From NCBI GenBank assembly GCA_965224245.1, contig OZ245046.1, positions 5,920,001-5,984,000 of the forward strand: a stretch of 64,000 bases of DNA, in the 5' to 3' direction. Source of the DNA: Candidatus Eiseniibacteriota bacterium. Its GTDB lineage: Bacteria > Eisenbacteria > RBG-16-71-46 > CAZAMP01. Numbering within the stretch: the first letter of the stretch is position 1; each line of letters begins with the position of its first letter. The translations under genes were made by a program, and so were the position numbers. The notes beneath the pieces are model-generated. The model made no database searches and was not told where the DNA came from. It was given only the letters and a program-made list of their open reading frames with translations. Of the stretch, positions 940-61,129 are shown one piece after another.

Positions 940-1003
940 ACCGTTCGATCACGCGTTCCCTCCCCGGCGCGATCGACACTGTCTCGACGAGGGGAGAGGC
1001 GAC

Positions 1004-3150: not shown

Positions 3151-3171
3151 CGCTCTTGGAGAGGATCATCG

Positions 3172-4503
<1,332 letters not shown>

Positions 4504-4506
4504 CCG

Positions 4507-7177: not shown

Positions 7178-7292
7178 GGCCTCGCGGCTCCGATCCATCC
7201 GGATCCGATCCGGAGAGCCACCCGCCGCCGCGCCACCGAGGAGCCGCGGAAGCCGAGGAGCTCCCGGCCGCCTGGAGCCCGTTCGCGCCAGA

Positions 7293-8264
7293 TCACGCGG
7301 AGGGGGCTCGCACTCTGGCGACACTCACCAGTGCGTCGACGGCCTGGCCGTGCTGCTTGCGCACCGACGTCGCTTCCAGCGACAGGACGTCGAACGACTC
7401 CTCACACACGCGACGCACGTACGTCTCACCGTGACGGTACCGTCCGTCTGCGCTGAGCTGCACGTCGCGATCGGATGCGCGTTCGACGGTGAACGCGAAC
7501 AGCCCGCCCGGCACGAGACACGCCCGCACGGCGCGAAAGACCGGCGCGAGATCCCCGACGTAGATCAGGACCTCGATGGCCACGACGAGCGAGTAGCGTC
7601 CGGCGCGCTCCATCATCGTGGCGATCATGTCGCCCGCCGTCAGCTCGTCGTAGTGACCGGTCGCCCGCGCGCGCGTCAGCATCTCGGAGGAGAGATCCAC
7701 GCCGTCCAGCCGGTGGGCCAGCGTGCGCAACGACGCACCGGCGAGTCCGGTTCCGCATCCGGCGTCGAGGACGTCGTGTCGGTCGTCACCCACGAGAGGG
7801 GCCAGTGCCCGCATCACGACGGCCGGCCCGTCGTAGGAGAGGGTATCGGTCAGGTGCTCGTCGTACGTCCTCGCGTACTCGTCGAACCGCACCCGGAGAT
7901 ACTCTATGGGGACGCGGTCGGGCGCGTCGGTGGTGCCGTCCCGGGCCAGGAGATAGTCGGCGACCTCGTCCACGCTCGCCTCGTCGATGGCGAGCGCGCG
8001 GGCCTCGGCGGTCCGGAGCCGGCGCCGGCACTCGAGCGCCTCGGTGTGGCGCCCCGACTTCTGGAGCAGATAGGCCAGCCCTTCCAGGCCCGCCGCGTGA
8101 TCGGGGTCGGTCTCCAGGAGTCGGCGGAAGGCCGCCTCCGCGGCCGCGTGATCCCCCGCCGGATTCGCGAGGCTCGACCAGTGGAAGCTCGCGGGATGTG
8201 GATGTGTGAAACCCGCGTCGGCCAGCGCGGCCAGCCACGCGCGCTCGGCGCTGGTGAAGGTCAT
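7293..8264 (-). CDS. TPR-containing class I SAM-dependent methyltransferase
   Basis: TPR-like N-terminal helices; FDEYARTYDEHL; LDAGCGTGL; GVDLSSEM; YVGDL; GRYRH. Confidence 0.85.
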   Translation of the reverse strand: MTFTSAERAWLAALADAGFTHPHPASFHWSSLANPAGDHAAAEAAFRRLLETDPDHAAGLEGLAYLLQKSGRHTEALECRRRLRTAEARALAIDEASVDEVADYLLARDGTTDAPDRVPIEYLRVRFDEYARTYDEHLTDTLSYDGPAVVMRALAPLVGDDRHDVLDAGCGTGLAGASLRTLAHRLDGVDLSSEMLTRARATGHYDELTAGDMIATMMERAGRYSLVVAIEVLIYVGDLAPVFRAVRACLVPGGLFAFTVERASDRDVQLSADGRYRHGETYVRRVCEESFDVLSLEATSVRKQHGQAVDALVSVARVRAPSA

Positions 8265-8351
8265 CGATACCCCCCTCGGCCGGCTCGCCCGCGGCCCGTG
8301 CTCGTGCCGCCGTCCGGGCGCGCGATCATCGGCGCGACCACGGCGATGCGA

Positions 8352-9740
8352 TCATCGGGACGTGCGCCACGCCGCGAGCCCGCGCTCGGCGTCCGTGCCC
8401 GGGATCGTGTTGTCGAGGAACGTGGCGATGATCGCCCCCACGGCCATGCCGGTCTGTCCGATCGTGTTGACCACGTCGGCCAGCCAGGACGGCGAGAACG
8501 TGGCCGGATTGGCGGCGACGTACTCGGGCACCGAGAGCCCCATGAAGATCGCGAATCCCAGGATGAACAGGTTTCGCGCGGAGTTGAGATCCACGAACTG
8601 GAGGTTGGACAGCCCCACCGATGCGATCATGCCGAACATCGTGCAGTACATGCCGCCCACGATCGGCTGGGGAATCGTGGTGAAGAGCGCGCCGAACTTT
8701 CCAAGCACGGCGAGAAGCATCATCAGGATCGCGCCCATCTGCACCACGCGGCGACTGCCCACGCGGGTGAGGCCGATCGCGCCGATGTTCTCCGAGTACG
8801 ACGTCGTTCCGTTGCCGGTGCCGAAGACTCCGGCGATCAGACAGCCCACGCCCTCCATGCCGATGCCCCGATTCACGACGCGCGGGGTGGGAACCGGCGC
8901 GCCCGAGAGACGCGCGCACGCGTAGTAATCACCCACGGACTCCACCATCGACGCGATGTAGCCCGCGAGCATGCCCACGGTGGCGGCGGCGCCGAAGACG
9001 GGCATCCCCCACTGGAACGGATACGGTACGCGGAGCCAGGGAGCGTTTCGGACGCTGGTCAGGTCGACGTACGCGGGGTGTCCGGTCTCGAACACGCCGG
9101 TCGCGGTGCAGAGCGCGGCGACGCCCCACGCACCCAGGATGCCCAGCAGCACCGGGAACAGCTCGAACGCCCGGTGCGTCCGGCGCAGATACTGGCTGAA
9201 CAGGATCATCAGCGCGATCGTCAGCCCGCCGATTCCCCAGTGCGTTCCCGCCACCGGGGCGCCGAACTTGAACAGCGCGAGCCCGATCAGCGTGATCACC
9301 GGCGCGATGGTCAGGGGGCCCACAAACCGCAGCAGCCTTCCCACGAGGCCGGAGTACCCCAGTGCGATCTCGACCAGCGCGCCCAGGATCACGGCGCCCT
9401 GAACGTGACGCAGCCGCACGTCCCAGCCCTCGCCCGAGAGCGCCGCCATGCCGCAGATCGCGATCGTGGGCGCGAGAAACGAGAACGTGCCGCCCTGCAC
9501 GATGGGAAGGCGGTTGCCGAAGACCGTCTGGAGGAGCGTGGTGATTCCACTGACGAAGAACATCGTGCCGATCAGCCAGCCCAGCTCGACCGGCCGACCC
9601 GAGAGCCCCAGGGGCTCGGCCAGGATGAGCGGGATCGCCACCGTCGAGCCGAACATCGTCAGGTAGTGCTGAAACCCCAGAAGAACCGACTCACGGAGTG
9701 GAGGTTTCTCGTCGATGCGGTAGATGAGATCTCGCGACAT
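8352..9740 (-). CDS. NCS2 (uracil/xanthine/ascorbate family) nucleobase permease
   Basis: QH motif in TM1 (FQHYLTMFG), ESVGD, NCS2 signature ENIGAIGLTR; many TM segments. Confidence 0.92.
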   Translation of the reverse strand: MSRDLIYRIDEKPPLRESVLLGFQHYLTMFGSTVAIPLILAEPLGLSGRPVELGWLIGTMFFVSGITTLLQTVFGNRLPIVQGGTFSFLAPTIAICGMAALSGEGWDVRLRHVQGAVILGALVEIALGYSGLVGRLLRFVGPLTIAPVITLIGLALFKFGAPVAGTHWGIGGLTIALMILFSQYLRRTHRAFELFPVLLGILGAWGVAALCTATGVFETGHPAYVDLTSVRNAPWLRVPYPFQWGMPVFGAAATVGMLAGYIASMVESVGDYYACARLSGAPVPTPRVVNRGIGMEGVGCLIAGVFGTGNGTTSYSENIGAIGLTRVGSRRVVQMGAILMMLLAVLGKFGALFTTIPQPIVGGMYCTMFGMIASVGLSNLQFVDLNSARNLFILGFAIFMGLSVPEYVAANPATFSPSWLADVVNTIGQTGMAVGAIIATFLDNTIPGTDAERGLAAWRTSR

Positions 9741-19153: not shown

Positions 19154-19606
19154 ATGGGGCGCGCCGGCATGGATAAGTCGCAACTAATCAGCGGTTTACA
19201 GCTAGCCATCCTGCGAGAGATCTGGAGTCGTGGAGAGGCCACGGTGGCGGAGGTGCACAACGCCTTGCAGAGGGAACGGGGGCTGGCGATGACGACCGTC
19301 GCCACCGTCCTCTCCCGACTCGAGAAACGCCGGCTCATCACCCACCGACGCGAGGGTCGCCAGTTCGTCTACCGGGCCCGGGTCAGCGAGGAAGACGTCC
19401 GGAGCCAGATGGTGGCCGAGATTACGGAACGTCTCTTCCACGGAGACGTAACCGAGCTGGTGAGCCACCTGGTCGCCGACGGCGACATCAGCCAGGGCGA
19501 CCTGGCCCGCGTGCGGGAGCTCATCGAGACCCGAGAATCCGAGCTCGGTGCCGGAGCCCCACCTCCGGCGCCCGACGAACCCCGCGAGCACCCGGAGGAG
19601 GGGTGA
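19154..19606 (+). CDS. BlaI/MecI/CopY family transcriptional repressor
   Basis: LQLAILREIW, LAMTTVATVLSRLEKR, REGRQFVY, LFHG..ELVSHL. The start may be ATG 19169. Confidence 0.93.
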   Translation: MGRAGMDKSQLISGLQLAILREIWSRGEATVAEVHNALQRERGLAMTTVATVLSRLEKRRLITHRREGRQFVYRARVSEEDVRSQMVAEITERLFHGDVTELVSHLVADGDISQGDLARVRELIETRESELGAGAPPPAPDEPREHPEEG

Positions 19607-22071
19607 TGGACGCCCACCCGGTTCTGCTGATGCTGTCGACGCTCGCGCTGGCCTGGGCTCTCACCTACCTCCTCCACAGTACGATCTTCCTCGGAATCGC
19701 CTGGGGCCTCTCGCGGGTCCTGCCCACCCGTCTGGCCGCCACCAAGGATGCGGTGATCAAGACGGCGCTCGTGGGCGGGATCGTGACGGCCACGCTCCAG
19801 GTCGGGATCGGCGTGAACCCCCTCGGAGGGGCCATCGAGCTCCCCGGCGCGACCGCGCCGCCCACGGTGCCGGCCGACGTTCCGGTCTCCGAAACCCCGG
19901 ACGCGATCTGGGTCTCGACGCCCGACGGCCTCGTTCCAGTGTCTCCCGCCACAGGACACGCCGATCCGGGCCGTGCCGGCATCGTGCCGGTCGGCGAGGT
20001 CGACCTGCTCGGCATCGGCCGATCCCCGGTGCGCTCGGCCGGCGAGCCAGCGGGCGCGAGCCGGGACCTGCGCGTCGTTCCCGCCCACCGGGTCGGCTCG
20101 CCGCGAAGCCCCCTCGCGCTGATGCTGGCCGACGCCGGACGGATCTCGACCCGCGTCCTGGCCCCGGTGCTCGTGCTCGCCTGGCTCGTCCTGGCGAGCT
20201 TCAACGTGGGGCGGGTCGTCCTGGCGCGCCAGTGGCTCCGGTCCCGGCTGGCCGCCCGGCACGAGCTGATCGACGGACCCATCGTGCACACCGCCGACCG
20301 GCTCAGCCGGGAGCTGGACTTCGACCGGCGGGTCCGCGTCAGCGTCTCGGATCGGATCCAGAGCCCGATCGCGTTCGGCCGCCGCGAGATCTGCCTTCCG
20401 GCGCGCGCGATCGACGAGCTCGAGCCCGAGGCGGTCGAGGCGCTGCTCGTTCACGAGCTCGTCCACCTCGTCCGACGCGACCCGGCCTGGCTCTTCGGAT
20501 CGGTGCTGCTGGAGCGCGCGCTGTTCTTCCAGCCGCTGAACCGCATCGTGCGGCGACTGCTCACCGAGAACGCCGAGTACCTCTGTGACGACCAGGCCGC
20601 GCGCCGGACCGGCAGCGGGCTCCCGCTGGCCAAGTGCCTCGCCCAGGTCGCCACCTGGGTCGACGGCTCCCGGCGACCGAGCCTCGTGCCCGGCATCCTG
20701 ATGCAGGGCGGCCAGCGCGAGCGTTCCCCGCTCGTGAAGCGGGTCGAGCACCTCGTCGGCAACGACAGTGGCCGTCTGCCGGTGCTGAAGCGGCGTCACC
20801 GGCTCGCGGTCGCCGCCGCGTGCTTCGCGGTCGCGTGCTTGACGGTCCCGGCCGTCCGCTCCACCTCGACCCTCAGCTCGCTCCACGCGACCGTCCTCGA
20901 CGGGGCGTCGGGGCCGTTTCGCGTCGCGGGTCTCGAGACCCAGAGCCCGCCCGACACCGCGGCGCGCCGGCTCCGCAGCGGCAGCCTCGCGCGATCGCGC
21001 AATCCCGAGTCCGTGCGCCCGGTCTCCGGCAACGCACGAGGCGAGGACGTCGACGACATCGTGATCCACGACGAGGTCGTCACCCGTCGCGATACCGACG
21101 ATCCCGAGTCGCTGGACACGCTCGAGTCCGTCAAGAATGCCGTCGAGGCCTACCTGGGGGCCGTGGGGGGCGGCGCGGTCGAACTCGGCATGACCGCTCG
21201 CGAGCTCGCCGCGGCGACGCACGGTCTCGGCCTGTCCGCGCACGACACGGCGGCCCGCACGTTCGCCTCGATGCTGGATCACGACCGTGAGCACGATCAC
21301 GACTGTGACGAGGTCGACGACGACCTGTCCGAGACGGCCGAATCGCTGGAGGAGCTGCTCGTGGAGCTCGACGACCACGAGACGCGGGCGATGTATCTCC
21401 AGCTGATGGCCATGGCGCTCGAGGGAGGCGACTCATCGTTGCTCGAGGCCCTGATCGACGGGGGGGAGCTCGAGGCACGGGATCGCCATGGGCGCTCGCC
21501 GCTCCACGTCGCGACCGAGGCGGGAGACCTCGAGGCGATCGAGCGGCTCCTCGGGGCCGGTGCGCGGCTCGCGGCCGAGGACGACAACGGACGCACGGCG
21601 CTCCACCTCGCGGCCATCGAGGGCGAGCTGTCGGCGATCGAGCTGCTTCTGGAGCTCGGCGCCGACATCGATGCGGAGGACGAGCAGGGTCAGACCCCGC
21701 TCCACGTTGCGGTCGACGACGGCGACTTCGAGGTCGTTCAGCTCCTCTGCGTGGCCGGCGCGAACCCTGACCTCCGCGACGTGCACGGCCGCACGCCCCT
21801 TCACGTGGCGATCGAGGAGTCCGACTTCGACATCGTCCGGCTGCTGCTGGCTGCCGGCGCGGACCCCGGCATCGAGGACGAGTACGGCCGGAACGCCCTC
21901 CACCGCGCGATCGACGAGGGCGACGCCGACATCGTGGCCACCCTCGTCGAGAACGGCGCGAACCTGGACGCCGCGGACCGAAGCGGCCGCACGGCGGTCG
22001 ACTGGGCCGAGCGCTCGGGCACCGACGAGATCCGCGAGCTGCTCGAGGAGGCGGCGTCGGCCGGGCGATGA
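19606..22071 (+). CDS. BlaR1/MecR1-like M56 metallopeptidase with six C-terminal ankyrin repeats
   Basis: HELVHLVRRD, FFQP, EYLCD M56 motifs; six D..G(R/Q)(T/S/N)(P/A)LH-type ankyrin repeats at about 21470-22050; TGATG coupling to blaI. Confidence 0.9.
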   Translation: MDAHPVLLMLSTLALAWALTYLLHSTIFLGIAWGLSRVLPTRLAATKDAVIKTALVGGIVTATLQVGIGVNPLGGAIELPGATAPPTVPADVPVSETPDAIWVSTPDGLVPVSPATGHADPGRAGIVPVGEVDLLGIGRSPVRSAGEPAGASRDLRVVPAHRVGSPRSPLALMLADAGRISTRVLAPVLVLAWLVLASFNVGRVVLARQWLRSRLAARHELIDGPIVHTADRLSRELDFDRRVRVSVSDRIQSPIAFGRREICLPARAIDELEPEAVEALLVHELVHLVRRDPAWLFGSVLLERALFFQPLNRIVRRLLTENAEYLCDDQAARRTGSGLPLAKCLAQVATWVDGSRRPSLVPGILMQGGQRERSPLVKRVEHLVGNDSGRLPVLKRRHRLAVAAACFAVACLTVPAVRSTSTLSSLHATVLDGASGPFRVAGLETQSPPDTAARRLRSGSLARSRNPESVRPVSGNARGEDVDDIVIHDEVVTRRDTDDPESLDTLESVKNAVEAYLGAVGGGAVELGMTARELAAATHGLGLSAHDTAARTFASMLDHDREHDHDCDEVDDDLSETAESLEELLVELDDHETRAMYLQLMAMALEGGDSSLLEALIDGGELEARDRHGRSPLHVATEAGDLEAIERLLGAGARLAAEDDNGRTALHLAAIEGELSAIELLLELGADIDAEDEQGQTPLHVAVDDGDFEVVQLLCVAGANPDLRDVHGRTPLHVAIEESDFDIVRLLLAAGADPGIEDEYGRNALHRAIDEGDADIVATLVENGANLDAADRSGRTAVDWAERSGTDEIRELLEEAASAGR

Positions 22072-38151: not shown

Positions 38152-40941
38152 ATGACAGACATGAAGACAGGTCATCTCGTTGCAACTTTGGGGTTCATCA
38201 CTTCGCTCGGATTCGCCAGGTCTTCCGACGCCGACATCGGGGTGGGCATTGCAGGGTATGAGGTTGACTATGTACGGCTGGACGAGCAGGAGTCCAGCTG
38301 CGTGGCCGGATGCGATCAGTGCGTACCCGAGACGATCTCCTCGTTCTCGGGAGTGACGGCATGTGGGCCAGGCTATCCCTGCGGATTTCTTGGAGATTGC
38401 CGAGCGTGCAATGGCTTATGTAGCAGGTCGTTGTCATTCGAGAAGCGTGACGGTGGCTTGTCTGTGCCCACGTGGGGGATCTTCTTCGTGCACAGCCCCG
38501 ACGACTTCGACGGAAACCTCGAGGCCTGCAGGCAACGCGTGCTCGACGTGTACTGCACCGCTGGGGTAATCCCCATCCACGGTGCATACAAGAAGTTCCT
38601 GGATCTGGAAGTCGACGCAATCCCCGGCGATGGAGCGGAATCGTACGCCGACCTGGGCCGGGATCCCCTCTTCATGGGAGAGGCCGCGACACAGGAACCG
38701 CTCTCGGGCGCTTTCGCAACCGCCATGCAGCAGCGAATGGGGGTCCTTGCAAAGATCGTTCGCGACCTCGGGGTGCCGGCGCGTCGAGCAGATCCCGGGA
38801 CACTGGAGTACTACGAGCGTGCATTGACGATTTGCTGTTGGGCGTGGGTGAACGACTGGAGTCCGTATGGGAGCATTACGCCAACGGACATTGGCTTTGA
38901 GTCTGATCTCCCGTCTCAGGCAGCACGTCGACAGATTCGTGAAATCCTCGTGGCGACGTGCGGCGATCCTCTCTTCGGCGACTGCGACGCGATCCCATCC
39001 GACGACGACCCCGCGGCCAGCGTCGGCGGCTTCGACGTGGCCGACGACGAGACCGCGCGCTTCTCCGTGCTCGACGAGTACGACACCGCCGGCTACGTCC
39101 TCCGCGGCGTCGGCGACGCCGGGGAGACCCTGCACGAGGTCGACGTCCCCGCCGGCGTCGGACGCCGCGTCGTCGATCTCGAGGGACTCGAGGCCCCGAT
39201 CTGGACGCTCCACGAAATCGAAGGGAACGGAGACGAGCGCCTCGTCGACCGCGTGACGCCCCAGCCGCTCGTGTCGCCGCCGCCGGCCGACCCGCTCGAC
39301 GCGACGCGACTGCGGACCCGGGTCGACTCGCTCCTCACGCTGCACCTCCAGACGTGGGGGCACACCGAGCCCAGCCCCGCCGAGCGCGTGGCCGTTTATG
39401 CCCGGCAGTCGCTCACCGCCGATCTCGAGGCGTTCTACGCCGCGTTCTGGGAGTCTCCACCCTGGGGCTACGACGTCGACGTGGTCCCGGTCGAGCCATT
39501 CGGCTCCGTGGTGCCCTTCGAGGATCCGATCGCATTCCGAGAAGCGTTGGGAGACGACATCGCCGCACGCTACGCCGCGGGCACGCGCCACTTCATGCTC
39601 GTCGGCGACGCCAACGATCACGTCGCGTTCGCGCAGTCGGGCGAGCGCCACGACGAGACCTGGGGCGTGGGGGAGTGGCCGTCGATCTGGGCGGGCCAGG
39701 TGGCGGCCGGCGCATCGCCGGACGGTCAGCCCGAGCGCGACGTCATCCCGATGTGGCTCGTGCCCGATACGGCGCCGCGGGGCGAGGGCCTCGCCTGGGT
39801 CAGCCCATACTTCATGAGCGACGCCCCGTATCGCCCGGCCGACGATGCGGTCCTGACGCGTCTGCCGGTCGTCACCAGCGAGGAGCTCCTCGCGTGGCTG
39901 TACAAGGAGCTCGTGGTCGCCGATCGCTTCCTCGCGGTCGGAAACGACTCGCGTCCGAGCCGGGTCACGCTGCTGGTCGGGGACCGCAATCACGGAGACC
40001 CCGACGAGCACGAGTGGGCCCGACAGATCGGTGACGACGTGGAGACGAGTCTCGCCGCAGAGGAGGTCGTGCGGCTGAACGAACGCGACTTCCCGGCCAC
40101 GTGCGATCGGACGACCGCGCTCCTGACCGACTGGAACTACGCTCGGCCCGAGCTCGTCGTGATCCCGGCCGCGACTCTGAGCAACCGGTACTTCCCGGGC
40201 AACTTCATGAGCACGCTCGACGAGACGTGCCCGTTCGGCGTCTCGCTGCTGGAGCCGTACGTGCTGCCGCCGCTCTTCCTCCAGACCTGCGACGTCGGCG
40301 ACCTCGCACGCACCGAGCAGACGCTGGAGGGCACGCCCGGCGGCACGATCCTCTCCCCGGTGACCGAGCAGATGCTGCTCGCCGATCCCGAGCGGGGCAC
40401 CGTGTTCGCATGGGGGCCCACGGCCGGCACGGTGCAGAGCCAGACCGAGATCCTGGCGCCGCTCGTGGTCGGCGAGCTCTTTGCCGGCGATCGATCCCGG
40501 ACGATCGCCGAGGTGGGGACCGCCGCCCTCGCCGGGTACACGGCCGAGCACGGCGCCGATCCGCTCACCGCTCGCGTGGCCTCGTCCATCGTGATGCTCG
40601 GGAGCCCGCTCACCCACTTCGCGTTCGACGAGGCGCTGACCGCGGGCACGCCGGACGGCGGCGTCGGGCCGCGCCGCATGCGGGTCGCGCCGAATCCGTT
40701 CAATCCCCGGGTACGCATTCGCGTGCACGTTCCCGCCGACGGTCGCGGCCGGCTGACCCTCTTCGACGCCGCCGGTCGCGAGGTCCGCTCGTTCGTCGCC
40801 GACGGCGCTCACCCGGGATCCAATCAGTTCGTGTGGGACGGGCTGGATCACGCGGGGCGCCGCGTGCCGTCCGGACGCTATTTCGCCCGATGGAAGACCA
40901 CCTCGGGATCGGAGACCGAGACGATCGTTCTGATCAGATGA
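38152..40941 (+). CDS. Secreted multidomain protein: Cys-rich N-terminus, gingipain (C25)-like domain, FlgD/T9SS-like CTD
   Basis: MLVGD, SDAPY, RLPV, QTCDVG, MLGSP resemble C25 motifs; C-terminal PNPFNP...FDAAGREV...WDGLD..G..VPSGRYF. Confidence 0.65.
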   Translation: MTDMKTGHLVATLGFITSLGFARSSDADIGVGIAGYEVDYVRLDEQESSCVAGCDQCVPETISSFSGVTACGPGYPCGFLGDCRACNGLCSRSLSFEKRDGGLSVPTWGIFFVHSPDDFDGNLEACRQRVLDVYCTAGVIPIHGAYKKFLDLEVDAIPGDGAESYADLGRDPLFMGEAATQEPLSGAFATAMQQRMGVLAKIVRDLGVPARRADPGTLEYYERALTICCWAWVNDWSPYGSITPTDIGFESDLPSQAARRQIREILVATCGDPLFGDCDAIPSDDDPAASVGGFDVADDETARFSVLDEYDTAGYVLRGVGDAGETLHEVDVPAGVGRRVVDLEGLEAPIWTLHEIEGNGDERLVDRVTPQPLVSPPPADPLDATRLRTRVDSLLTLHLQTWGHTEPSPAERVAVYARQSLTADLEAFYAAFWESPPWGYDVDVVPVEPFGSVVPFEDPIAFREALGDDIAARYAAGTRHFMLVGDANDHVAFAQSGERHDETWGVGEWPSIWAGQVAAGASPDGQPERDVIPMWLVPDTAPRGEGLAWVSPYFMSDAPYRPADDAVLTRLPVVTSEELLAWLYKELVVADRFLAVGNDSRPSRVTLLVGDRNHGDPDEHEWARQIGDDVETSLAAEEVVRLNERDFPATCDRTTALLTDWNYARPELVVIPAATLSNRYFPGNFMSTLDETCPFGVSLLEPYVLPPLFLQTCDVGDLARTEQTLEGTPGGTILSPVTEQMLLADPERGTVFAWGPTAGTVQSQTEILAPLVVGELFAGDRSRTIAEVGTAALAGYTAEHGADPLTARVASSIVMLGSPLTHFAFDEALTAGTPDGGVGPRRMRVAPNPFNPRVRIRVHVPADGRGRLTLFDAAGREVRSFVADGAHPGSNQFVWDGLDHAGRRVPSGRYFARWKTTSGSETETIVLIR

Positions 40942-52956: not shown

Positions 52957-53430
52957 ATGATTCCCGTAACCGCGAAGCGAGTCGCGGCGGTCCTGGCCGT
53001 CGGCGCCGGAGTGCTGGTCCATCATGCCTGCGGGGGTGGGAAAGAGGAGCCGCCCGTGGATCTCGGCGAGCCGGAGAGCTACCGCGTCACGCTGATCGTG
53101 CACGACGTCGCCGGCTCGAATCTGTGCGAGAACATCCAGATAGAGGCCAGCGTCACGGGGAGGACCTTCGAGGACGTGCCCTACTCGGCACGCAATGCGT
53201 GCGACGTCGAGTTCGAGGCGTGCGAGTTCTCAAAGGTATGGAGCAGCGTCGAGGTGCCCTCCGGCAGCATGATGACCATCGAGGTGAGAGCCACCGAGGC
53301 GGGCGAGGAGCTCTGGTCTCTCGACGACACCGTCACGCCCACCGCGAACATGACCCTGTGCTACGAGCGTCCCGAATCCGCTCGGGATCTCGGGCACTCG
53401 GGGTGCTGGAACGAGCATGGCTGTCCCTAG
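52957..53430 (+). CDS. Hypothetical lipoprotein
   Basis: GAGGAG RBS; basic + hydrophobic leader ending HHA-C-GGG; Cys-containing beta-rich body. Confidence 0.6.
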   Translation: MIPVTAKRVAAVLAVGAGVLVHHACGGGKEEPPVDLGEPESYRVTLIVHDVAGSNLCENIQIEASVTGRTFEDVPYSARNACDVEFEACEFSKVWSSVEVPSGSMMTIEVRATEAGEELWSLDDTVTPTANMTLCYERPESARDLGHSGCWNEHGCP

Positions 53431-53457
53431 ACGGGGAGTCGTGTGTGTGATCCCCGT

Positions 53458-54285
53458 GTGAACCCGTACCTCGTCGATCTGGGAACGGTCGCCGTGCCCG
53501 GCGTGGGCGAGATCCGTCTCTGTCTGCCGGCCTACGGCACGCTGTTGATGACGGCTCTCCTCGTCGGTCGTTGGTGGTTCCTGCGATCGATCCGGCGTGC
53601 GGGGTTGGATGAGCACCGCGCGCGTCGGATCGTCGTCGCCTCCCTGGTGGCCGCCCTCCTCGGCGCGAAGGTCCAGCCCCTCCTCACGGAGATACCCGCA
53701 CTCACGCGCGATCCCGGATCGCTGGCGTCGCTCGACCATCTCCTGACCGGCGGCTCGGTCTGGGCGGGCGTCGTGACCGGCATCGCCGTCATGGCGTGGC
53801 TTTCCCGCCGGTACGGGCTGGGTGCGCTGCGAGTGCTGGACCTCGCTGCGGTTCCGCTTCCCGTCTGCCAGGCGCTGGGCAGACTCGGTTGTCTCCTCGC
53901 GGGCTGTTGCTACGGAGCGCCCTGCGAGGTTCCCTGGGGGATCACGTACCGGTCGGCGACCGCCCACGCCTTGACCGGAGTGCCGCTCGGCGTTCGCGTT
54001 CACCCGAGCCCCGTCTACGATGCGCTCTGGTCGCTCGGCATCGTGCTTCCCGGGGTGATTCTCGCGCGACGGCTCGGGGGGCGGGCGGGGATCACCACCG
54101 CGGTCTACGTCTCGCTCTACTCGCTCGGACGCCTGCTGCTGGAGACGGTGCGCGGTGATCCGGGGCGTGGAGCGTGGATCGGCATCCTCTCGACGAGCCA
54201 GGTGATCTCGATCGGGGGACTCGCATCGGCAGCCGTGCTCGTCGTGGTGATTCGGAGCTCCCTGGTGTCGCCGGCGAACCGTTGA
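53458..54285 (+). CDS. lgt: Prolipoprotein diacylglyceryl transferase family protein
   Basis: AYG, GRLGCLLAGCCYG, HPSPVY, RLLLETVRGD; multiple TM segments. Confidence 0.88.
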   Translation: MNPYLVDLGTVAVPGVGEIRLCLPAYGTLLMTALLVGRWWFLRSIRRAGLDEHRARRIVVASLVAALLGAKVQPLLTEIPALTRDPGSLASLDHLLTGGSVWAGVVTGIAVMAWLSRRYGLGALRVLDLAAVPLPVCQALGRLGCLLAGCCYGAPCEVPWGITYRSATAHALTGVPLGVRVHPSPVYDALWSLGIVLPGVILARRLGGRAGITTAVYVSLYSLGRLLLETVRGDPGRGAWIGILSTSQVISIGGLASAAVLVVVIRSSLVSPANR

Positions 54286-54435
54286 GGCAACGCGAATCCG
54301 CGCGCACGGTTCTCAGCGCCGAGATGAACGAGACGCTCTCGCGGCGATCCCGTCCTCGTTCGAATGGGTGGGTGATGGCTCTGGAGTATGAGAGGATCCC
54401 GGCGTTGGACCGATTCCATCTCACCGAGGGAGCCA

Positions 54436-55617
54436 ATGTCACTACCGTCCACCCACGCCGCGTCCGGCGTGACGTGGCCGGTCACCACCACCGTGGGGGC
54501 CGGGCTGCGCGGCGCCATCGCGACCACGAGTCGCGTCGCCTGGCTCGACCCGTCGGGGCGGCTCCTCTATCGCGGCGTGCCGATCGAGTCGCTCGTTCAC
54601 GGTCCGAGCTTCGAGGAGATCGCGTTTCTCCTCCTGTGCGGCCGCCGACGCACCGACGACCCGTCCGGATGGTCACGATTTCGCGAGGATCTGCGCGAGA
54701 CGATGGTCATTCCCGATCGCGTCCGCTCGCTGATCATCGCGATGGGGCGGGACGCGGCTCCCCTCGATCGACTGCGCGCCGGCGTCTCCGAGCTCGGCGC
54801 GATCGGCGGCGCCGAGCGTGAGGAGACGTCGTCGCGTCTACTCGGTCGTCTCGCCGCGCTCCTGATCGGGATCGCCGCCGACGAGCGGGGCCTGGGGCTC
54901 CGGATCTCGACCGGCCGTGCCACGATCAGCGAGCGCTTCCTCCACGAGATCCTGGGCGCGCGTCCGGACACGACCGCGCTGGCCGCCCTCGATACGACCC
55001 TGATCGCGTATGCCGACGACGGCCTCGCCCCGCAGACCTTCGCCACGCTGGTCGTGGCCAGCTGCCTCGGCGATCGGTGCTCCGCGCTCGTGGCCGGACT
55101 CAGCGCGGCCAGCGGCTCCCGCGCGTCCGGGGCCGCGGTCACGCTGGCCGAGGCGATCGCCGGCCTGGGCGGCGCCTCCGAGGTCGAGGCGTGGATCGAC
55201 GGAATCCTCGCGCGCGGCGAGCGACTCCCCGGCTTCGGTCACCGGGTCTTCGGCGCGCGCGATCCACGGCTCTCCTTGCTGCGCGGGGCGGCCGAGCGGC
55301 TCGTGGAGCGCGGCGTGACCGCGTTCGATCGCGACGAGGGGCGGCGGATGCTGGACGTCGCGCGCGCCCTCGAGACGGTCGGGACGTCTCGACTGGAGTC
55401 GCGGGGGATCGGCGCGAACGCCCACATCTATGGCGCGCTCGTCCTCTCGCTCCTGGGCGTCCGGCCGCGCGTCATCCCCTTCATGGTCGCGTTCGCGCGC
55501 TTCGCCGGGGCGCTGGCCCGCGTCGACGAGTACCTCTCGCACAACCGGATCTTCCGCCCGCTGGACCGGTACACCGGGCTCGATGCGCGTCCGTTCGCGC
55601 CCCTGGAGGCGCGTTGA
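54436..55617 (+). CDS. Citrate synthase-fold protein lacking catalytic His and Asp
   Basis: G.LLYRG..IE, GFGHRVF...DPR, IFRP..YTG present; YADDG, GSRASGA and NAH replace HADH, GPLHGGA and NVD. Confidence 0.8.
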   Translation: MSLPSTHAASGVTWPVTTTVGAGLRGAIATTSRVAWLDPSGRLLYRGVPIESLVHGPSFEEIAFLLLCGRRRTDDPSGWSRFREDLRETMVIPDRVRSLIIAMGRDAAPLDRLRAGVSELGAIGGAEREETSSRLLGRLAALLIGIAADERGLGLRISTGRATISERFLHEILGARPDTTALAALDTTLIAYADDGLAPQTFATLVVASCLGDRCSALVAGLSAASGSRASGAAVTLAEAIAGLGGASEVEAWIDGILARGERLPGFGHRVFGARDPRLSLLRGAAERLVERGVTAFDRDEGRRMLDVARALETVGTSRLESRGIGANAHIYGALVLSLLGVRPRVIPFMVAFARFAGALARVDEYLSHNRIFRPLDRYTGLDARPFAPLEAR

Positions 55618-56747
55618 GGCCGGGTGACTGGCAGCCCGGCCGCCAGACGTACGAGCGGGGGCTGGCCGATCTCGTGATCGGAGACAGCTCGATCAGCCGC
55701 ATCGACGGCGCGAACGGCCGACTCTGGTATCGCGGTTACGCCATCGAGGACCTGGCCGCGCACGCGAGCTTCGAGGAGGTCAGCTACCTGATCCTCGAGG
55801 GGGAGCTTCCGGACGCGCCGGCGCTCGCCGCATGGCGAGACGAGCTCGCCGGGTGGCGTGAGCTGCCGGAGGAGGCTCTGAAGGCGATCGCCGCGCTGCC
55901 GTTCGGACACGATCCGTTCGATGGGTTCCAGACCGCCATGGCCGTCGCCGCGTCGGTGGCCCCCGAGCGCGACGCGCGCGATCCGGTGGTGCTTCGCCGA
56001 CACGCGGCGCGGATCCTGACCTGGACCGCCGGACTCGCGGCGGCGTGCATTCGGAAGCTCCGCGGCCAGTCGCCGGTGTCGCCACGCGAGGACCTCGACT
56101 ACACATCCCACTTCCTGTGGCTCGCGAACGGACGGGAGCCCGACGACGTCGAGCGGAGCGCGCTCGAGGTGACGATGATCGTGAAGGCCGAGCACGGCGT
56201 TCACGCCGCCGCGCTCACCGCGCTCGTGGTGGCCTCGGCCGGCGCCGATCTCGACAGCGCGGTGCTGGCCGGCATCGGCGCGCTCTCGGGCTCGCTCCAC
56301 GCCGGCGCGAACCGGGCCGCGTACCGCATGGTCCTCGAGCGACGCGATCCAGACGACGCACGGACGTGGGCACGCGCGCGACTGGCCGAGCGGTACCGCT
56401 TTCCGGGCTACGGTCACCGCGTATACAAGAGCCACGACCCGCGGGCGATGCTGATGGCGCCCCACGCCGAGCGACTCCTCGCGCGCGCCGGCCGTGCCGA
56501 CGAGTGGGCGCGTTTCGTCGCCATGCGCGACGAGATCGAGACCGCGCTCGGGCCTCGCGGTATCCGCGGGAACGTGGACGCGCTGACCGGCTTCATCTAC
56601 GAGCCCCTCGGGCTGCCCGAGGAGGCGTTCACGATTCCGTTCTGTCTGGCCATCCAGACCGGCTGGATGGCGCACTGCCTCGAGTACCTCGAGCACCTGG
56701 GGCCGGTGATCGAGCCCACGTCGCTGTACCTCGAGGAGCCCTCCTGA
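55614..56747 (+). CDS. Citrate synthase family protein with intact catalytic triad
   Basis: GRLWYRGY.IEDL, AEHG, GSLHAGAN, GYGHRVYK.HDPR, NVD; TTG start overlapping the upstream stop, GGAGG RBS. Confidence 0.85.
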   Translation: MRPGDWQPGRQTYERGLADLVIGDSSISRIDGANGRLWYRGYAIEDLAAHASFEEVSYLILEGELPDAPALAAWRDELAGWRELPEEALKAIAALPFGHDPFDGFQTAMAVAASVAPERDARDPVVLRRHAARILTWTAGLAAACIRKLRGQSPVSPREDLDYTSHFLWLANGREPDDVERSALEVTMIVKAEHGVHAAALTALVVASAGADLDSAVLAGIGALSGSLHAGANRAAYRMVLERRDPDDARTWARARLAERYRFPGYGHRVYKSHDPRAMLMAPHAERLLARAGRADEWARFVAMRDEIETALGPRGIRGNVDALTGFIYEPLGLPEEAFTIPFCLAIQTGWMAHCLEYLEHLGPVIEPTSLYLEEPS

Positions 56748-56921
56748 CGCCGGACACCCTCGCGGTCGTACGGTCCTGCCTTCCTCGCCACCGCCTCCCG
56801 ATCGAGCCGGGTACGTAGAACCCACGACTGCGCCGGGTGCGATCACACCCGTATCCTCGGCTCGGGAATCTGTCCGAACGCAAACCGTCCGTACGTGGAG
56901 GATCAGGACAAGGAGAGACCC

Positions 56922-57971
56922 ATGGTTGGCATCGTCGGCTACGGCGCGGACATGCCGCGCTACCGGATCAAGGTGGAAGAGATCGCCAAGGTCTGGGGAG
57001 CCGATGCCGCGGCATTCAAGCGCGGGCTGCGGCTACAGGAGAAGTCCGTGCCGGCGCCGGATCAGGACGTGATCACGATGTCGGTGGAGGCCGCGCGCCG
57101 CGCGATCCGTCGGGCCGCGATCGATCCCCAGAAGATCGGGGCGCTGTACATCGGATCCGAGTCACACCCCTACGCCGTGAAGCCCAGCGGCACCGTCGTC
57201 GCCGAGGCCATCGGCGCCACCCCGGACGTTCACACCGCCGACTACGAGTTCGCGTGCAAGGCGGGATCCGAGGGGATGTTCGTGGCCGCGAGCCTCGTCG
57301 AGGCGGGGGCCGTCGAGTACGCGGTGGGCATCGGGGCCGACACGTCCCAGGGCGCGCCGGGTGACGCGCTCGAGTACACGGCTTCGGCCGGCGCCGCGGC
57401 GTTCATCTTCGGCTCCGAGCACGTCGTGGCCAGCGTGGACGCGACGCACAGCTTCATGACCGACACCCCGGACTTCTGGCGGCGCGAGCATCAGTTCTAC
57501 CCGCGCCACGCCGGGCGCTTCACCGGCGAGCCGGCGTACTTCAAGCACGTCCGGGGCTGCGCGACCGCGCTCCTCGACAAGACCGGCACCCGGCCCGAGG
57601 ACTTCCGGTGGGCGGTGTTTCACCAGCCCAACGGCAAGTTCCCGATGGCGGTCGGGAAGTCGCTCGGCTTCACCACCGAGCAGATCGAGCAGGGCTGGCT
57701 CGTGCCGCTCCTCGGCAACACGTACTCGGGCTCGTCCCCGATGGGTCTCACGGCGGTCCTCGACGAGGCGTCGCCGGGTGATCGCATCTTCATGGTCTCG
57801 TACGGATCCGGCGCCGGAAGCGACGGCTTCGTGTTCACGGTGACCGACGAGATCGAGCGCGTGCGACCGCGCGCTGAGAAGACACGCGACCTGTTGACGT
57901 CGAATCGCCGGCACCTCGAGTACGGCGAGTACGCGAAGTTCCGCGAGAAGATCCGCAAGCTCCAGGTGTGA
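56922..57971 (+). CDS. Archaeal-type hydroxymethylglutaryl-CoA synthase
   Basis: GSESHPYAVKP, EFACKAG (catalytic Cys), DTPDFWRR, FTGEPAYF, FHQPNGKFP, GNTYSG, SYGSGAGSD. Confidence 0.92.
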   Translation: MVGIVGYGADMPRYRIKVEEIAKVWGADAAAFKRGLRLQEKSVPAPDQDVITMSVEAARRAIRRAAIDPQKIGALYIGSESHPYAVKPSGTVVAEAIGATPDVHTADYEFACKAGSEGMFVAASLVEAGAVEYAVGIGADTSQGAPGDALEYTASAGAAAFIFGSEHVVASVDATHSFMTDTPDFWRREHQFYPRHAGRFTGEPAYFKHVRGCATALLDKTGTRPEDFRWAVFHQPNGKFPMAVGKSLGFTTEQIEQGWLVPLLGNTYSGSSPMGLTAVLDEASPGDRIFMVSYGSGAGSDGFVFTVTDEIERVRPRAEKTRDLLTSNRRHLEYGEYAKFREKIRKLQV

Positions 57972-58022
57972 GCGCGTGCCCCTCGCGGGGTGACGCCGGC
58001 GATTTTGGCAAGGAGTACCGTC

Positions 58023-59180
58023 ATGAGAGATGTCGCCGTCATCGGTGTCGGCATGCGGAAGTGGGGCGAGCTGTGGGAGGAGTCCCTCCGGCAGATGTTC
58101 ACCCGCACCGCGCTCGACGCCCTCGACGATGCCGGCGTCGATCACATCGACGCCATGTACGTGGGATGCATGTCCTCGGGTCTGTTCGTCGGTCAGGAGC
58201 ACCTGTCCTCGGTGCTGAGTGACTACCTCGGATGCAATCCGATCCCGGCGCTGCGGGTGGAGGCCGCCTGTGCATCGGGTGGGATGGCCGTCCGCCAGGC
58301 GATCCTCGACGTCGCGAGCGGCGCCAGCGAGATCGTCCTGGCCGGCGGGGTCGAGAAGATGACCGACGTGGACGGTGGCGGCGCGACGTTCGCGCTGGCC
58401 ACGGCCGCCGACCAGGAGTACGAGGCCTACAACGGCATCACGTTCCCGGGTCTGTACGCGCTGATGGCTCGTGCCCACATGGAGCGCTACGGCACGACGC
58501 GCGACCAGCTCAGCGCGGTCGCGGTCAAGAACCACGCGAACGGGGCCCTCAACCCGCACGCGCAGTTCCCGACCCCGATCACGCCGGAGACGGTGTCGTC
58601 GTCGGTCATGGTCGCCGACCCGCTCCGGCTGTTCGACTGCTCGCCGATCACCGACGGCGCGGCCGCCGTCGTGGTGTGTCCGCTGGATCGGGCCGCCAAG
58701 CTCGGGAAGGGAACACCGGTCCGCGTGACCGGGATGGGGGCGGCCAGCGATACGATCGCACTCCACGACCGTTCCGACCTCACCGAGATCGCGTCGACGC
58801 AGCGGGCGGCCGAGATGGCCTACGGCATGTCGGGAAAGGGACCGGGAGACCTCGATCTCGTCGAGGTGCACGACTGCTTCACGATCGCCGAGCTCATGGT
58901 CGTCGAGGCGCTCGGGCTCGTGGATCGAGGCCACGGTGGACCCGCGACCCTCGCCGGTGAGACGAGCCGGGATGGCCGGATCCCCGTGAACCCCAGCGGT
59001 GGGCTCAAGTCGAAGGGACACCCGGTCGGGGCGACGGGCGTGGCGCAGATCGTCGAGCTCGCCACGCAGCTCCGCGGTGATGCCGGCGATCGACAGATCG
59101 CGAACGTACGGTGCGCGCTGGCGCAGAACATGGGCGGCACCGGAGGAACCTCCGTGGTGCACATCCTGGAGGTGGTGTGA
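58023..59180 (+). CDS. Archaeal-type acetoacetyl-CoA thiolase (SCP2-thiolase-like)
   Basis: [42 protein letters not shown]. Confidence 0.92.
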
Positions 59181-59578
59181 TGTCGTCTCCGAGATACTGG
59201 CGCGAGGTGCCGCAGCGCTACCGGTACGAGGCGACCCGGTGCTCGGGCTGCGGCCGCGTGCACTTTCCGCCGCGGCCGGTGTGCCCCAAGTGCCGCTCCC
59301 GGGAGGCCACGCCGACGAGGCTGGCCGACGAGGGGCACGTGGTGTCGTACACGATGATCCACATCGCCCCCACGGGCTTCGAGGATCAGGCACCGTATCC
59401 GATGGCCGTCGTGGAGACCGACGACGGCGCGCGTCTCCTGGCCCAGATCGCCGACTGCGACGAGGAGAACCTGGAGACCGGGATGCGGGTTCGCATCGCG
59501 TTCCGGAAGATCCAGGAAGAGGGCAAGTCGGGAATCATCTGCTACGGGTACAAGTTCGTACCCGCCTCGACCACGTGA
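59180..59578 (+). CDS. DUF35 Zn-ribbon/OB-fold scaffold protein
   Basis: CSGCG..HFPPR..CPKC; OB fold; YGYKF tail; TGATG coupling to the thiolase. Confidence 0.92.
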   Translation: MSSPRYWREVPQRYRYEATRCSGCGRVHFPPRPVCPKCRSREATPTRLADEGHVVSYTMIHIAPTGFEDQAPYPMAVVETDDGARLLAQIADCDEENLETGMRVRIAFRKIQEEGKSGIICYGYKFVPASTT

Positions 59579-59614
59579 TCGTATGGGGCGGCTCGTCGTG
59601 GAGCCGCCCCGCTC

Positions 59615-61129
59615 TCACCGGAGGATCCGCACCGGTGCGGTCCACGTGACGTGCGACCCGGTCACCCGCACGTAGAACGTCCCCGGTGCGACCACTCGTC
59701 CGGACTCGTCCTCGGTATCCCAGCGAACGGTGGCCTCGCGACCGAGCGGCGGCACCGGTCCGAGGTCGCGCACACGGCGACCGGTCACGTCCAGCACCTC
59801 GACGCGGACGTCCGAGGAGCGATCCGGGAGTCGCAGCGTGATCGCCACCGAACGGCGCGCGGGGTTCGGCGTCACGCCGAGCGCCGGGGTGTCCGGCACC
59901 GTCGGAGGTGAGTCCGCCCCGATCGGGCTCCGGTACGTACCGTGCCGCGCCATGATGAACGGCCCCTCGGGTGTCGATTCGTCCCACAGGACGAGGATCC
60001 TCGCACGAGGCTCCGAGACGGGGTTCTCTCCGCCGACCGCCACGTGGCGGATGCCCGACGGCGTGAGCGTCATCACGTCACCGAACCCGAGGTCCCCGAT
60101 GCTGTGGGCGAACGTGTGGACGGGCTCCCCGCCGGGGGGAAGATCGGTCCAGGTGCCGAGCCAGTCCCATTCGAACGCCGGCCATCCCAGATCGACGAAG
60201 AAGCCGTCGAGATTGGGCGACACCGACGGCACGCCGTCCTCCGGAGACACCGGAACGGCGCCGCCGACGAGAAGCGTGCCGCTGTGGTTGCACTCCCAGA
60301 TCTCGGACACGCTCTCGGGGTCGGGCGGCGTGAACTCGAAGAGCGTCCGGAAGTGCGGATAGGCGAGGTCGGGGCAGCAGAAGTTGGCGTGCACCGATGG
60401 GCTCGTGCAGTTGCCGGAGAGATCGGTCAGCTGCTCGATCGAACCCCAACCGTCGTCCGGTGACAGCGTTCTCGCGAAGAGCTGCGTGAGCGGTCCGTCG
60501 AGATCCTCGTAGACGACCGTGAACCAGCCGAACGCGGGATAGTCGGTGACCGAGGGCACGTGCGCGGACCCCGGCGTGCCGGAGACGTCGAACACGTCGT
60601 CCCACGAGCCGTCGTCGTGGAGTCGGCCGCGTATCGACGAGCCGGACGCCGTCTCGTCCTCCCAGACCACGAGCGCGCGGCGCGCGCCGTCGTCGGTGCC
60701 CGCGACGACCGGACCCGAGGAGGGGTCGGGGCTGTCGCAGCTCACGCACTCGGGTGCCGACCAGCTCGTCCCATCGCCCTGGGCGACGAACACCTCCGTG
60801 GATGCGAACGCATCGGCTTCGTAGACGACGAAGAGATCGTCGTCGTGGTGGGCGAGGTGCGCGCTCCGGGCCCCGGAGAACTCCGCCACCCGGGACCATG
60901 CGCCGCCGGCTCGAACGCAGTGAACGACGGACGAGGGCTTCTGGTACACCACGTGCCAGTCACCCGCGAAGTAGACGATGGACGTACCCGCCGGTGTCGA
61001 GACCTCGAGCCCCTCGCGATCCACGACCTCCGGCGGGTCCCACTCGATCATGCCGGTGGCCAGTCCGGGGATGATCGACAGAAGGGCTGAGGGGACGAGT
61101 GCGGCGAGCCCGGCTCGTGTCTCGAGCAT
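59615..61129 (-). CDS. Secreted beta-propeller-like protein with FlgD/T9SS-like CTD
   Basis: AGGAGG RBS; signal peptide; repeated VV(Y/W)E...W motifs; PNP...LDVTGRRVRDL...WD..DESGR.VAPGTFYVR. Confidence 0.75.
   Translation of the reverse strand: MLETRAGLAALVPSALLSIIPGLATGMIEWDPPEVVDREGLEVSTPAGTSIVYFAGDWHVVYQKPSSVVHCVRAGGAWSRVAEFSGARSAHLAHHDDDLFVVYEADAFASTEVFVAQGDGTSWSAPECVSCDSPDPSSGPVVAGTDDGARRALVVWEDETASGSSIRGRLHDDGSWDDVFDVSGTPGSAHVPSVTDYPAFGWFTVVYEDLDGPLTQLFARTLSPDDGWGSIEQLTDLSGNCTSPSVHANFCCPDLAYPHFRTLFEFTPPDPESVSEIWECNHSGTLLVGGAVPVSPEDGVPSVSPNLDGFFVDLGWPAFEWDWLGTWTDLPPGGEPVHTFAHSIGDLGFGDVMTLTPSGIRHVAVGGENPVSEPRARILVLWDESTPEGPFIMARHGTYRSPIGADSPPTVPDTPALGVTPNPARRSVAITLRLPDRSSDVRVEVLDVTGRRVRDLGPVPPLGREATVRWDTEDESGRVVAPGTFYVRVTGSHVTWTAPVRILR

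Follow-up and report, generated by a model that had tools for sequence, protein, structure and literature searches.

We describe here two overlapping genes of the citrate synthase fold in a stretch of 64,000 nucleotides from a Candidatus Eiseniibacteriota bacterium (NCBI GenBank assembly GCA_965224245.1, contig OZ245046.1, positions 5,920,001 to 5,984,000 of the forward strand), which we call the window and in whose coordinates all positions are given. The two open reading frames (ORFs) are co-directional on the + strand and together occupy 54436-56747. Gene 1 (54436..55617, +) starts with ATG and encodes a protein of 393 aa, hereafter alpha; gene 2 (55614..56747, +) starts with TTG and encodes one of 377 aa, hereafter beta. 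Read from the sequence, a Shine-Dalgarno-like GAGGGAG precedes the start of gene 1 (54426..54432, +), and the GGAGG of gene 2 lies within the 3' end of gene 1 (55605..55609, +), about 5 bases before the TTG. The start codon of gene 2 overlaps the stop codon of gene 1 by 4 nt as TTGA (55614..55617, +), a putative site of translational coupling. An alternative in-frame ATG for gene 1 is present at 54388, but a start there is less likely because the closest gene 1 homologue is also 393 aa long. A scan of 53300-59800 found no promoter-like site, and a single minus-strand terminator-like site inside gene 2 was at chance level.

Both proteins match the Pfam family PF00285 over nearly its whole profile (211.4 bits for gene 1 and 302.2 bits for gene 2, against a cut-off of 27), and share 30% identity. 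Of the NCBIfam models, TIGR01800 fits both best, with 202.9 bits for gene 1 and 284.7 bits for gene 2 against a cut-off of 421.3, and both fall far under every NCBIfam cut-off, be it for citrate synthase, 2-methylcitrate synthase or citryl-CoA lyase. Their best matches among solved structures are small dimeric citrate synthases (1iom for gene 2, 231 bits; 1vgp for gene 1, 177 bits), and a look-up of gene 2 in the ESM Atlas returned generic citrate or 2-methylcitrate synthase clusters only. Automatic annotation labels the homologues of both genes "citrate synthase".

Citrate synthase is the textbook symmetric homodimer, in which each active site is formed by one subunit and borrows one Arg (R407 in Escherichia coli) from the C-terminal arm of the other. 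We read the corresponding residues column by column, in mature E. coli numbering, from an alignment of the two proteins with GltA and PrpC of E. coli K-12 and with two related pairs. Relative to GltA, gene 1 is changed at H229 (D195), N232 (A198), H264 (A230), D362 (H330) and F383 (V), and it retains H305 (H269), R314 (R278), R387 (R355) and R407, the Arg that reaches into the partner site (R374, codon 55555..55557, +). Gene 2 retains H229 (H194), R314 (R277), F383 and the catalytic residues H264 (H229; 56298..56300, +), H305 (H268; 56415..56417, +) and D362, the catalytic base (D322; 56577..56579, +). Its changes are at R387, replaced by I347 with Q348 at the next residue (56652..56657, +), at R407, where E367 stands in place of the trans-acting Arg (56712..56714, +), and in the NAS motif, which has become HAA (N232 to H197 and S234 to A199). 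The segment H194-G-V-H197-A-A199 (56193..56210, +) accordingly reads EHGVHAA where the canonical motif is xHxxNAS. The catalytic triad H264/H305/D362 is complete in gene 2 only, gene 1 having H305 alone. A composite site, as predicted, would contain H229 and R314 together with an R407 supplied by gene 1, and Ile from gene 2 in the place of R387.

These readings agree with the residue losses and retentions that an earlier, sequence-only reading of the locus had listed for the two genes, and with the 4-nt overlap that it had noticed, in all but two details. The loss of R387 that it had placed in the LAIQTG motif of gene 2 is real, but the aligned residue is I and the Q is the next one. The loss of H229 from gene 1, true in the window, is confined to the window's sub-clade, since 52 of 55 gene-1 copies at the loci described below keep this residue.

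The same division of residues recurs among database homologues. A search with gene 1 found 87 proteins, 32 of which (P0003-P0034, 35-72% identity) make up a gene-1-like family. Not one of these has His at 264 (0 of the 31 with a residue there) or Asp at 362 (0 of 32); 31 of them keep R387, and all 32 keep R407. The search with gene 2 found 355 proteins, the best 120 being at least 51% identical to it. Among the 66 that were aligned, H229, H264, H305, R314 and D362 are invariant, NAS is replaced by HAA in every case, R387 is I or V in every case, and position 407 has R in 3 proteins only, being otherwise E, D, S, A, T, N or Q. A gene-1 profile compared with 1.84 billion cluster representatives gave 15,313 matches of the citrate synthase family; because only 6 of the best 13, which we examined, have the gene-1 pattern (the other 7 are canonical), the gene-1 family appears to be a compact clade at 50% identity.

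The two genes also travel together. Scanning genomes with the gene-2 alignment gave 80 loci (given here as L with a number), 65 of which belong to the gene-2 family (L001-L064 and L076), or 66 counting the window. The metagenome-assembled genomes (MAGs) that hold these gene-2 loci bear the labels Acidobacteriota (Thermoanaerobaculia, Holophagae, Sulfomarinibacteraceae), Calditrichota, Planctomycetota, Methylomirabilota, Eiseniibacteriota and others. In 5 of the 66 loci the contig stops just 5' of gene 2, and their exclusion from the gene 1 counts leaves 61. A gene-1-like gene lies immediately 5' of gene 2 in 59 of these 61; an ORF was called for it in 55, and in the other four (L002, L053, L061, L063) it is fragmentary or frameshifted. 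The genes overlap through a 4-nt start/stop NTGA (ATGA, GTGA or TTGA) in 53 of the 55 called pairs. Besides H229, these 55 gene-1 copies keep R407 as R in 53, R387 in 54, R314 in all 55 and H305 in 54. D362 has become N in 52 of them, and the H264 position is Q, L, T, V, S, M or A; in most relatives D is fixed at N232, P at S234 and N at D362. The gene-2 copies carry H at N232 (63/66), A at S234 (66/66) and I or V at R387 (65 of the 65 with a residue there), and at position 407, which is free to vary in them, they have E (40), S (7), A (6), D (3), N (3), Q (2), L (1), G (1) or R (1; n=64). Such a substitution pattern is more than chance, because it recurs in 55 gene pairs from several phyla. 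The trans Arg also persists where the pocket of the gene-1 copy itself has decayed (the window, P0003, P0004, L029 and L056), and its outlasting of the alpha pocket fits an Arg that serves the partner's site. Conversely, the sole gene-2 locus with R407 (L062) has no gene 1 within 3 kb upstream, in what is a small sample.

Phylogeny and selection give a similar picture. Before a maximum-likelihood tree was built, near-duplicates above 72% identity were thinned, and truncated or frameshifted copies were left out (gene 1 of L033, L038 and L064; gene 2 of L002, L028, L048, L053, L059, L061, L063 and L064). In the resulting 85 rows, all 35 gene-1 rows form one clade and all 28 gene-2 rows another, each with a support of 100 in the Shimodaira-Hasegawa-like approximate likelihood-ratio test (SH-aLRT). 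The internal groupings of the two clades are similar and roughly congruent, as expected for an old duplication that has been co-inherited. The synonymous rate (dS) could be estimated in 16 of 19 independent locus pairs, in which the ratio of non-synonymous to synonymous substitution rates (dN/dS) lies between 0.10 and 0.43 for gene 1 and between 0.09 and 0.27 for gene 2; these values are rough because dS is saturated at about 0.8-2.9. Purifying selection thus acts on both genes, and gene 1 is not in decay.

We also modelled the alpha-beta combination, each protein being supplied with its own alignment. The heterodimer reached an interface score (ipSAE, interaction prediction score from aligned errors) of 0.94, against 0.00 for the best of three controls; that mark is reached by 116 of 157 solved complexes and by 2 of 215 mismatched pairs. 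Three runs share at least 96% of their contacts, with a predicted local distance difference test (pLDDT) of at least 89 for the partner. The modelled interface includes alpha 371-391, and with it R374, and beta 269, which is next to the catalytic H268. The model supports binding of alpha to beta.

These observations lead us to propose, as the probable reading of the locus, that alpha and beta, the products of genes 1 and 2, are obligate partners in a heterodimer that belongs to the citrate synthase family; each dimer would have one working site, and the enzyme would most likely still condense acetyl-CoA with oxaloacetate to form citrate. This predicted heterodimerisation around a single active site is well supported by comparative genomics. 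Beta would contribute the His-His-Asp triad, H229 and R314, and alpha, which is without the catalytic His and Asp, would contribute its trans Arg, R374, to the beta site. The reciprocal site would be dead, as the alpha pocket has no catalytic residues and beta would have no Arg to offer. The 4-nt overlap would couple the translation of the two subunits, which would therefore be made in roughly equal amounts. No heteromeric, heterodimeric or pseudoenzyme citrate synthase was found in the literature searched, subscription-only papers apart, and the terms "heteromer" and "paralog" do not occur in a survey of citrate synthase self-assembly (PMC11615384).

The alpha pocket may have a role of its own. 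Most relatives keep H229, H305, R314 and R387 in alpha and have gained D232; an effector role is conceivable because this constraint exceeds that of a merely structural subunit, and the pocket of most relatives may thus bind an effector. In the window it has drifted further (D195, A198, Q at S234, H330), and any such role has probably been lost in this sub-clade.

What the single site would act upon depends on the acceptor pocket of beta. According to a report on the citrate synthase of Metallosphaera sedula (PMC6386500), the equivalent of R387 is joined by a salt bridge to the central carboxylate of citrate, that is the alpha-carboxylate of oxaloacetate; the equivalent of R314 touches the alpha/central carboxylate as well as the carbonyl or hydroxyl; the Asn in NAS makes contact with both carboxylates of oxaloacetate; and an Arg from the C-terminal loop of the other subunit binds the CH2-COO- arm of citrate. 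In gene 2, one ligand of the alpha-carboxylate has been lost (R387 to I) and another changed (N232 to H), and the Arg for the distal carboxylate is kept by way of gene 1. The alpha-carboxylate pocket would thus be rewired by R387 to I, N232 to H, S234 to A and the Q that follows R387, and oxaloacetate would still be held by R314, the new His and the new Gln. Since position 232 contacts both carboxylates of oxaloacetate, the change of N232 to H may compensate for the lost Arg. We take the physiological reaction to be, most likely, that of acetyl-CoA and oxaloacetate to citrate, for the tricarboxylic acid (TCA) cycle or for the supply of glutamate, with a modest preference for oxaloacetate as the acceptor.

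The gene neighbourhood bears on the same question. In 8 of the 55 pair loci (L001, L003, L005, L010, L011, L022, L032, L036), sucA, sucB and/or lpd lie just downstream and co-directional, L005 having lpd without sucA or sucB. The presence of 2-oxoglutarate dehydrogenase genes beside the pair is a TCA-cycle setting, and resembles the arrangement of E. coli, in which gltA adjoins sdh-suc. A carbon-nitrogen (CN) hydrolase gene is found in all eight of these loci except L001, and an aminotransferase gene in L001, L003, L005, L010, L022 and L032. In those six loci the aminotransferase I/II and CN-hydrolase genes recur as a downstream block near the 2-oxoglutarate dehydrogenase genes (without the hydrolase in L001), and may represent the supply of 2-oxoglutarate through glutamine transaminase and omega-amidase; the gene of a hemerythrin / DUF438 / PAS protein lies between them in L003, L005, L010 and L022, and that of a histidine kinase in L003 and L022. 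At other loci the neighbours of the pair are housekeeping genes unrelated to it, as could be the case for a core enzyme, and are uninformative on function. The same holds for the conserved neighbours of Acidobacteriota-type loci, namely genes for a phospholipase D (PLD)-like protein, FxsA, Yip1, HlyD/MacB ATP-binding cassette (ABC) export and peptidases.

Another set of neighbours is found in the window itself. A gene for an archaeal-type 3-hydroxy-3-methylglutaryl-CoA (HMG-CoA) synthase begins 148 nt downstream of the pair (56895..57971, +; NF003274, 537 bits) and is followed by genes for a thiolase (57990..59180, +; NF004720, 528 bits) and for a DUF35 / OB-fold zinc-ribbon protein (59111..59578, +; assigned by Pfam), a trio that presumably corresponds to the archaeal three-protein complex of acetoacetyl-CoA thiolase and HMG-CoA synthase. 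In L003, L010 and L022 the same trio precedes the pair, co-directionally and within about 1-3.5 kb. Its functional linkage to the pair is uncertain. Annotation of the 64-kb window revealed no TCA gene, and no HMG-CoA reductase / mevalonate-pathway or leucine-catabolism gene. Upstream of the pair lies a gene for Lgt (53443-54285).

The sequence-only reading had drawn a double conclusion from the residues, and its two halves fare differently. That gene 1 completes the site of gene 2 as a heterodimer is well supported by the conservation of the pair, which it had proposed to examine, and also by the overlap, the trans-Arg pattern, selection, the tree and the complex model. Among the observations that it had named as telling against it are relaxed selection acting on gene 1 and the lack of this gene in relatives, and neither was found. 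For the second half, in which the loss of R387 speaks for an acceptor different from oxaloacetate, the context offers no support, given the suc/lpd genes in eight loci and the possible compensation by N232 to H.

Several points nevertheless weigh against an obligate heterodimer that makes citrate. The success of the complex model may merely reflect the likeness of both proteins to solved citrate synthase homodimers. Gene 2 has no adjoining gene 1 in two Planctomycetota loci (L052 and L062), the only such cases, and a search of proteins of 661-2000 aa gave no alpha-beta fusion, which is weak evidence. As regards the acceptor, the invariant change of R387 to Ile is a real change of the acceptor pocket, because the equivalent residue salt-bridges the alpha-carboxylate of oxaloacetate, and it is exactly what would be expected if this carboxylate had been replaced by methyl or H. 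Finally, the HMG-CoA synthase trio accompanies the pair in four loci and in two different gene orders. The last two points would be explained if the same heterodimer used another acceptor, a 3-oxoacid whose distal CH2-COO- is held by the trans Arg of alpha and whose methyl or H faces I347. Acetoacetate fits best, and the enzyme would then form or cleave HMG-CoA (citryl-CoA with a methyl for the central carboxylate) or make free HMG, together with the neighbouring HMG-CoA synthase, thiolase and DUF35 protein. The contacts of the two Arg in M. sedula (PMC6386500) are in keeping with such a substrate, as is the fact that all 65 gene-2 copies with a residue at R387 have I or V there at the same time as gene 1 conserves the trans Arg; so is the position of the trio, immediately downstream in the window and upstream, in a different order and on distant branches of the tree, in the three other loci. 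Against this, no more than 4 of 55 pair loci have the trio close by, those other than the window also have sucA downstream (with sucB in L010), and most loci have no metabolic neighbours; the new His at N232 and the Gln after R387 could still hold an alpha-carboxylate; gene 2 keeps the catalytic Asp and not the Glu typical of lyase-type relatives; and the window has no gene for HMG-CoA reductase or leucine catabolism. We therefore regard a changed acceptor as rather unlikely, yet as the most serious competitor of the citrate-forming heterodimer. A bolder version, in which the heterodimer no longer makes citrate at all, its single site interconverting acetoacetate with HMG-CoA or HMG and its alpha pocket serving as an allosteric metabolite sensor, appears more doubtful still. 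Were it true, HMG-CoA lyase or synthase chemistry would have a non-DRE-TIM route not known before, linked to the neighbouring trio.

It is about as doubtful that the two proteins do not pair. Beta would then be a homodimer whose site, short of two of three Arg, takes a less charged acceptor such as pyruvate or glyoxylate, and alpha a homodimeric binder or sensor of citrate or oxaloacetate, the genes being merely co-regulated. Most alphas indeed keep the full canonical binding set (H229, H305, R314, R387 and R407, in the numbers given above) and have lost only the catalytic residues, and a role independent of catalysis is described for a citrate synthase paralogue of Caulobacter (10.1101/799742). 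The 4-nt overlap in 53 of 55 loci is, however, typical of stoichiometric partners, and the heterodimer scored 0.94 against 0.00 for its controls. The trans Arg, moreover, is invariant even where the alpha pocket has decayed, as in the window (D195/A198/H330), P0004 (G229/S387) and L056, and the stand-alone gene 2 of L062 has its own Arg at 407, which suggests that the beta site needs a trans Arg. It is very improbable that gene 1 is a functionless, decaying duplicate and gene 2 alone the enzyme. Beta is without the trans Arg that it would require as a homodimer. The window's gene 1 is the most degenerate of its family, and gene-1 copies are fragmented or shortened in L002, L033, L053, L061, L063 and L064, but these may be assembly errors; gene 1 in the window is intact, and the family is conserved across phyla under purifying selection. 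The decaying-duplicate explanation is already contradicted by this conservation. The heterodimer with one citrate-forming site thus remains the reading that we prefer.

Some loci depart from the common arrangement. L038 and L040 are two copies of the pair in one Acidobacteriota MAG, on separate contigs; in L038, gene 1 is truncated and a 49-nt gap takes the place of the overlap. L047, L050 and L055 are second pairs that form a sub-clade, and their gene-2 copies have themselves lost catalytic residues (D362 to G in L047 and L050; H264 to Q and D362 to Y in L055), L055 being in the same MAG as the normal pair L045. As judged from these residues, both subunits would be non-catalytic in the three loci. 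The gene-2 copies of L052, L056 and L062 branch near the base of their clade, and gene 1 of L056 is very long-branched. Position 407 is Arg in L062 and Q in L052, and an Arg lies two residues past 407 in L052 and L056. These three gene-2 copies may be homodimeric relatives of the rewired catalytic subunit.

A different tandem of citrate synthase genes, adjacent or overlapping, was found in L065-L072, L074, L075 and L079, from Chloroflexota, Dormibacterota and one genome labelled Nitrosopolaris. Its first gene is fully canonical and its second is canonical except for Glu at D362, a change that we take to be linked to citryl-CoA lyase behaviour; lpd is found a few kb downstream in 8 of these 11 loci.

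The window holds other features away from the pair. A cluster for reductive pyrimidine breakdown at 67-9740 encodes a CN-hydrolase (beta-ureidopropionase-like), a dihydropyrimidinase-like amidohydrolase, a class III aminotransferase, PreT/PreA-like dihydropyrimidine dehydrogenase subunits and a xanthine/uracil permease. At 19154-22071 (+), a gene for a BlaI-type repressor is followed, in the place expected for that of a BlaR-type sensor, by one whose 822-aa product has numerous ankyrin repeats. Large proteins of secreted type with a C-terminal FlgD Ig-like domain, a tag common in Eisenbacteria-like and related candidate phyla and in keeping with the nearest named relatives of gene 2, are encoded at 38152-40941 (+) and 59615-61129 (-).

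In the MAGs of Acidobacteriota, Calditrichota, Planctomycetota, Methylomirabilota and Eisenbacteria-like bacteria, the pair would show how the labour of citrate synthase can be divided between its halves, one for catalysis and the other for the donated Arg. If our reading is right, it would be a clean case of gene duplication locking a homomer into an obligate heteromer, with a pseudoenzyme subunit, possibly regulatory, added to a central metabolic step. Metabolic reconstruction would be affected as well: both genes are annotated as citrate synthase, yet one would be unable to catalyse the reaction, and the other might lack activity on its own or even act on a different acceptor. As a natural experiment, the rewired pocket would also bear on how citrate synthase recognises its substrate.

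The pair is best seen against the canonical homodimeric citrate synthases (Thermus thermophilus 1IOM/1IXE, Sulfolobus tokodaii 1VGP and E. coli GltA), with which it shares the PF00285 fold, the triad of gene 2 and the logic of a composite site completed by an Arg from the partner's C-terminal arm. It differs from them in having two different subunits, only one predicted catalytic site, Ile for R387 and HAA for NAS in the catalytic subunit, and scores far below the NCBIfam cut-offs (203 and 285 bits against 421 for TIGR01800). PrpC, too, is a small dimeric enzyme of this fold, and TIGR01800 is the best model for both genes. E. coli PrpC keeps H229, N232, S234, H264, H305, R314, D362, R387 and R407, however, and among the 16 positions tabulated differs from GltA only at H226, R306 and R409. 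No prpB/prpD operon was found beside the pairs, where only two weak, partial matches of 124 aa to PrpB were seen (L012 and L015); the missing prp context and the altered acceptor site, with no R387 in gene 2, do not fit a 2-methylcitrate synthase. Citryl-CoA lyase and the citrate synthase module of ATP-citrate lyase belong to the same superfamily but are about 260-280 aa long, against 393 and 377 aa for the pair, which scores 51-83 bits with the NCBIfam citryl-CoA lyase models against cut-offs of 193-409. Glu at the D362 position is a hallmark of citryl-CoA lyase and is found in the lyase-like homologues, whereas gene 2 has D there and the gene 1 family H or N. Length, the D of gene 2 and the H of gene 1 at 362, and scores below the cut-offs do not fit this type.

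The nearest conceptual parallel is the NAD-dependent isocitrate dehydrogenase of eukaryotes (yeast IDH1/IDH2, mammalian IDH3), a TCA enzyme whose catalytic and regulatory subunits are paralogues and whose sites draw residues from both. Its fold is unrelated, and its non-catalytic paralogue has a regulatory role shown by experiment, whereas a regulatory role in our pair is conjecture. In trypanosomes, S-adenosylmethionine decarboxylase (AdoMetDC) forms a heterodimer with prozyme, a dead paralogue that is needed for activity and is reported to relieve autoinhibition (PMC5201418). A dead paralogue as partner is common to both systems, but the dead subunit of our pair is predicted to donate a substrate-binding Arg directly. 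With a conserved, co-inherited and presumably co-expressed paralogue that has lost its catalytic residues, and with an association supported by the complex model, the pair described here would take its place beside these systems as a heteromeric enzyme with a pseudoenzyme subunit.

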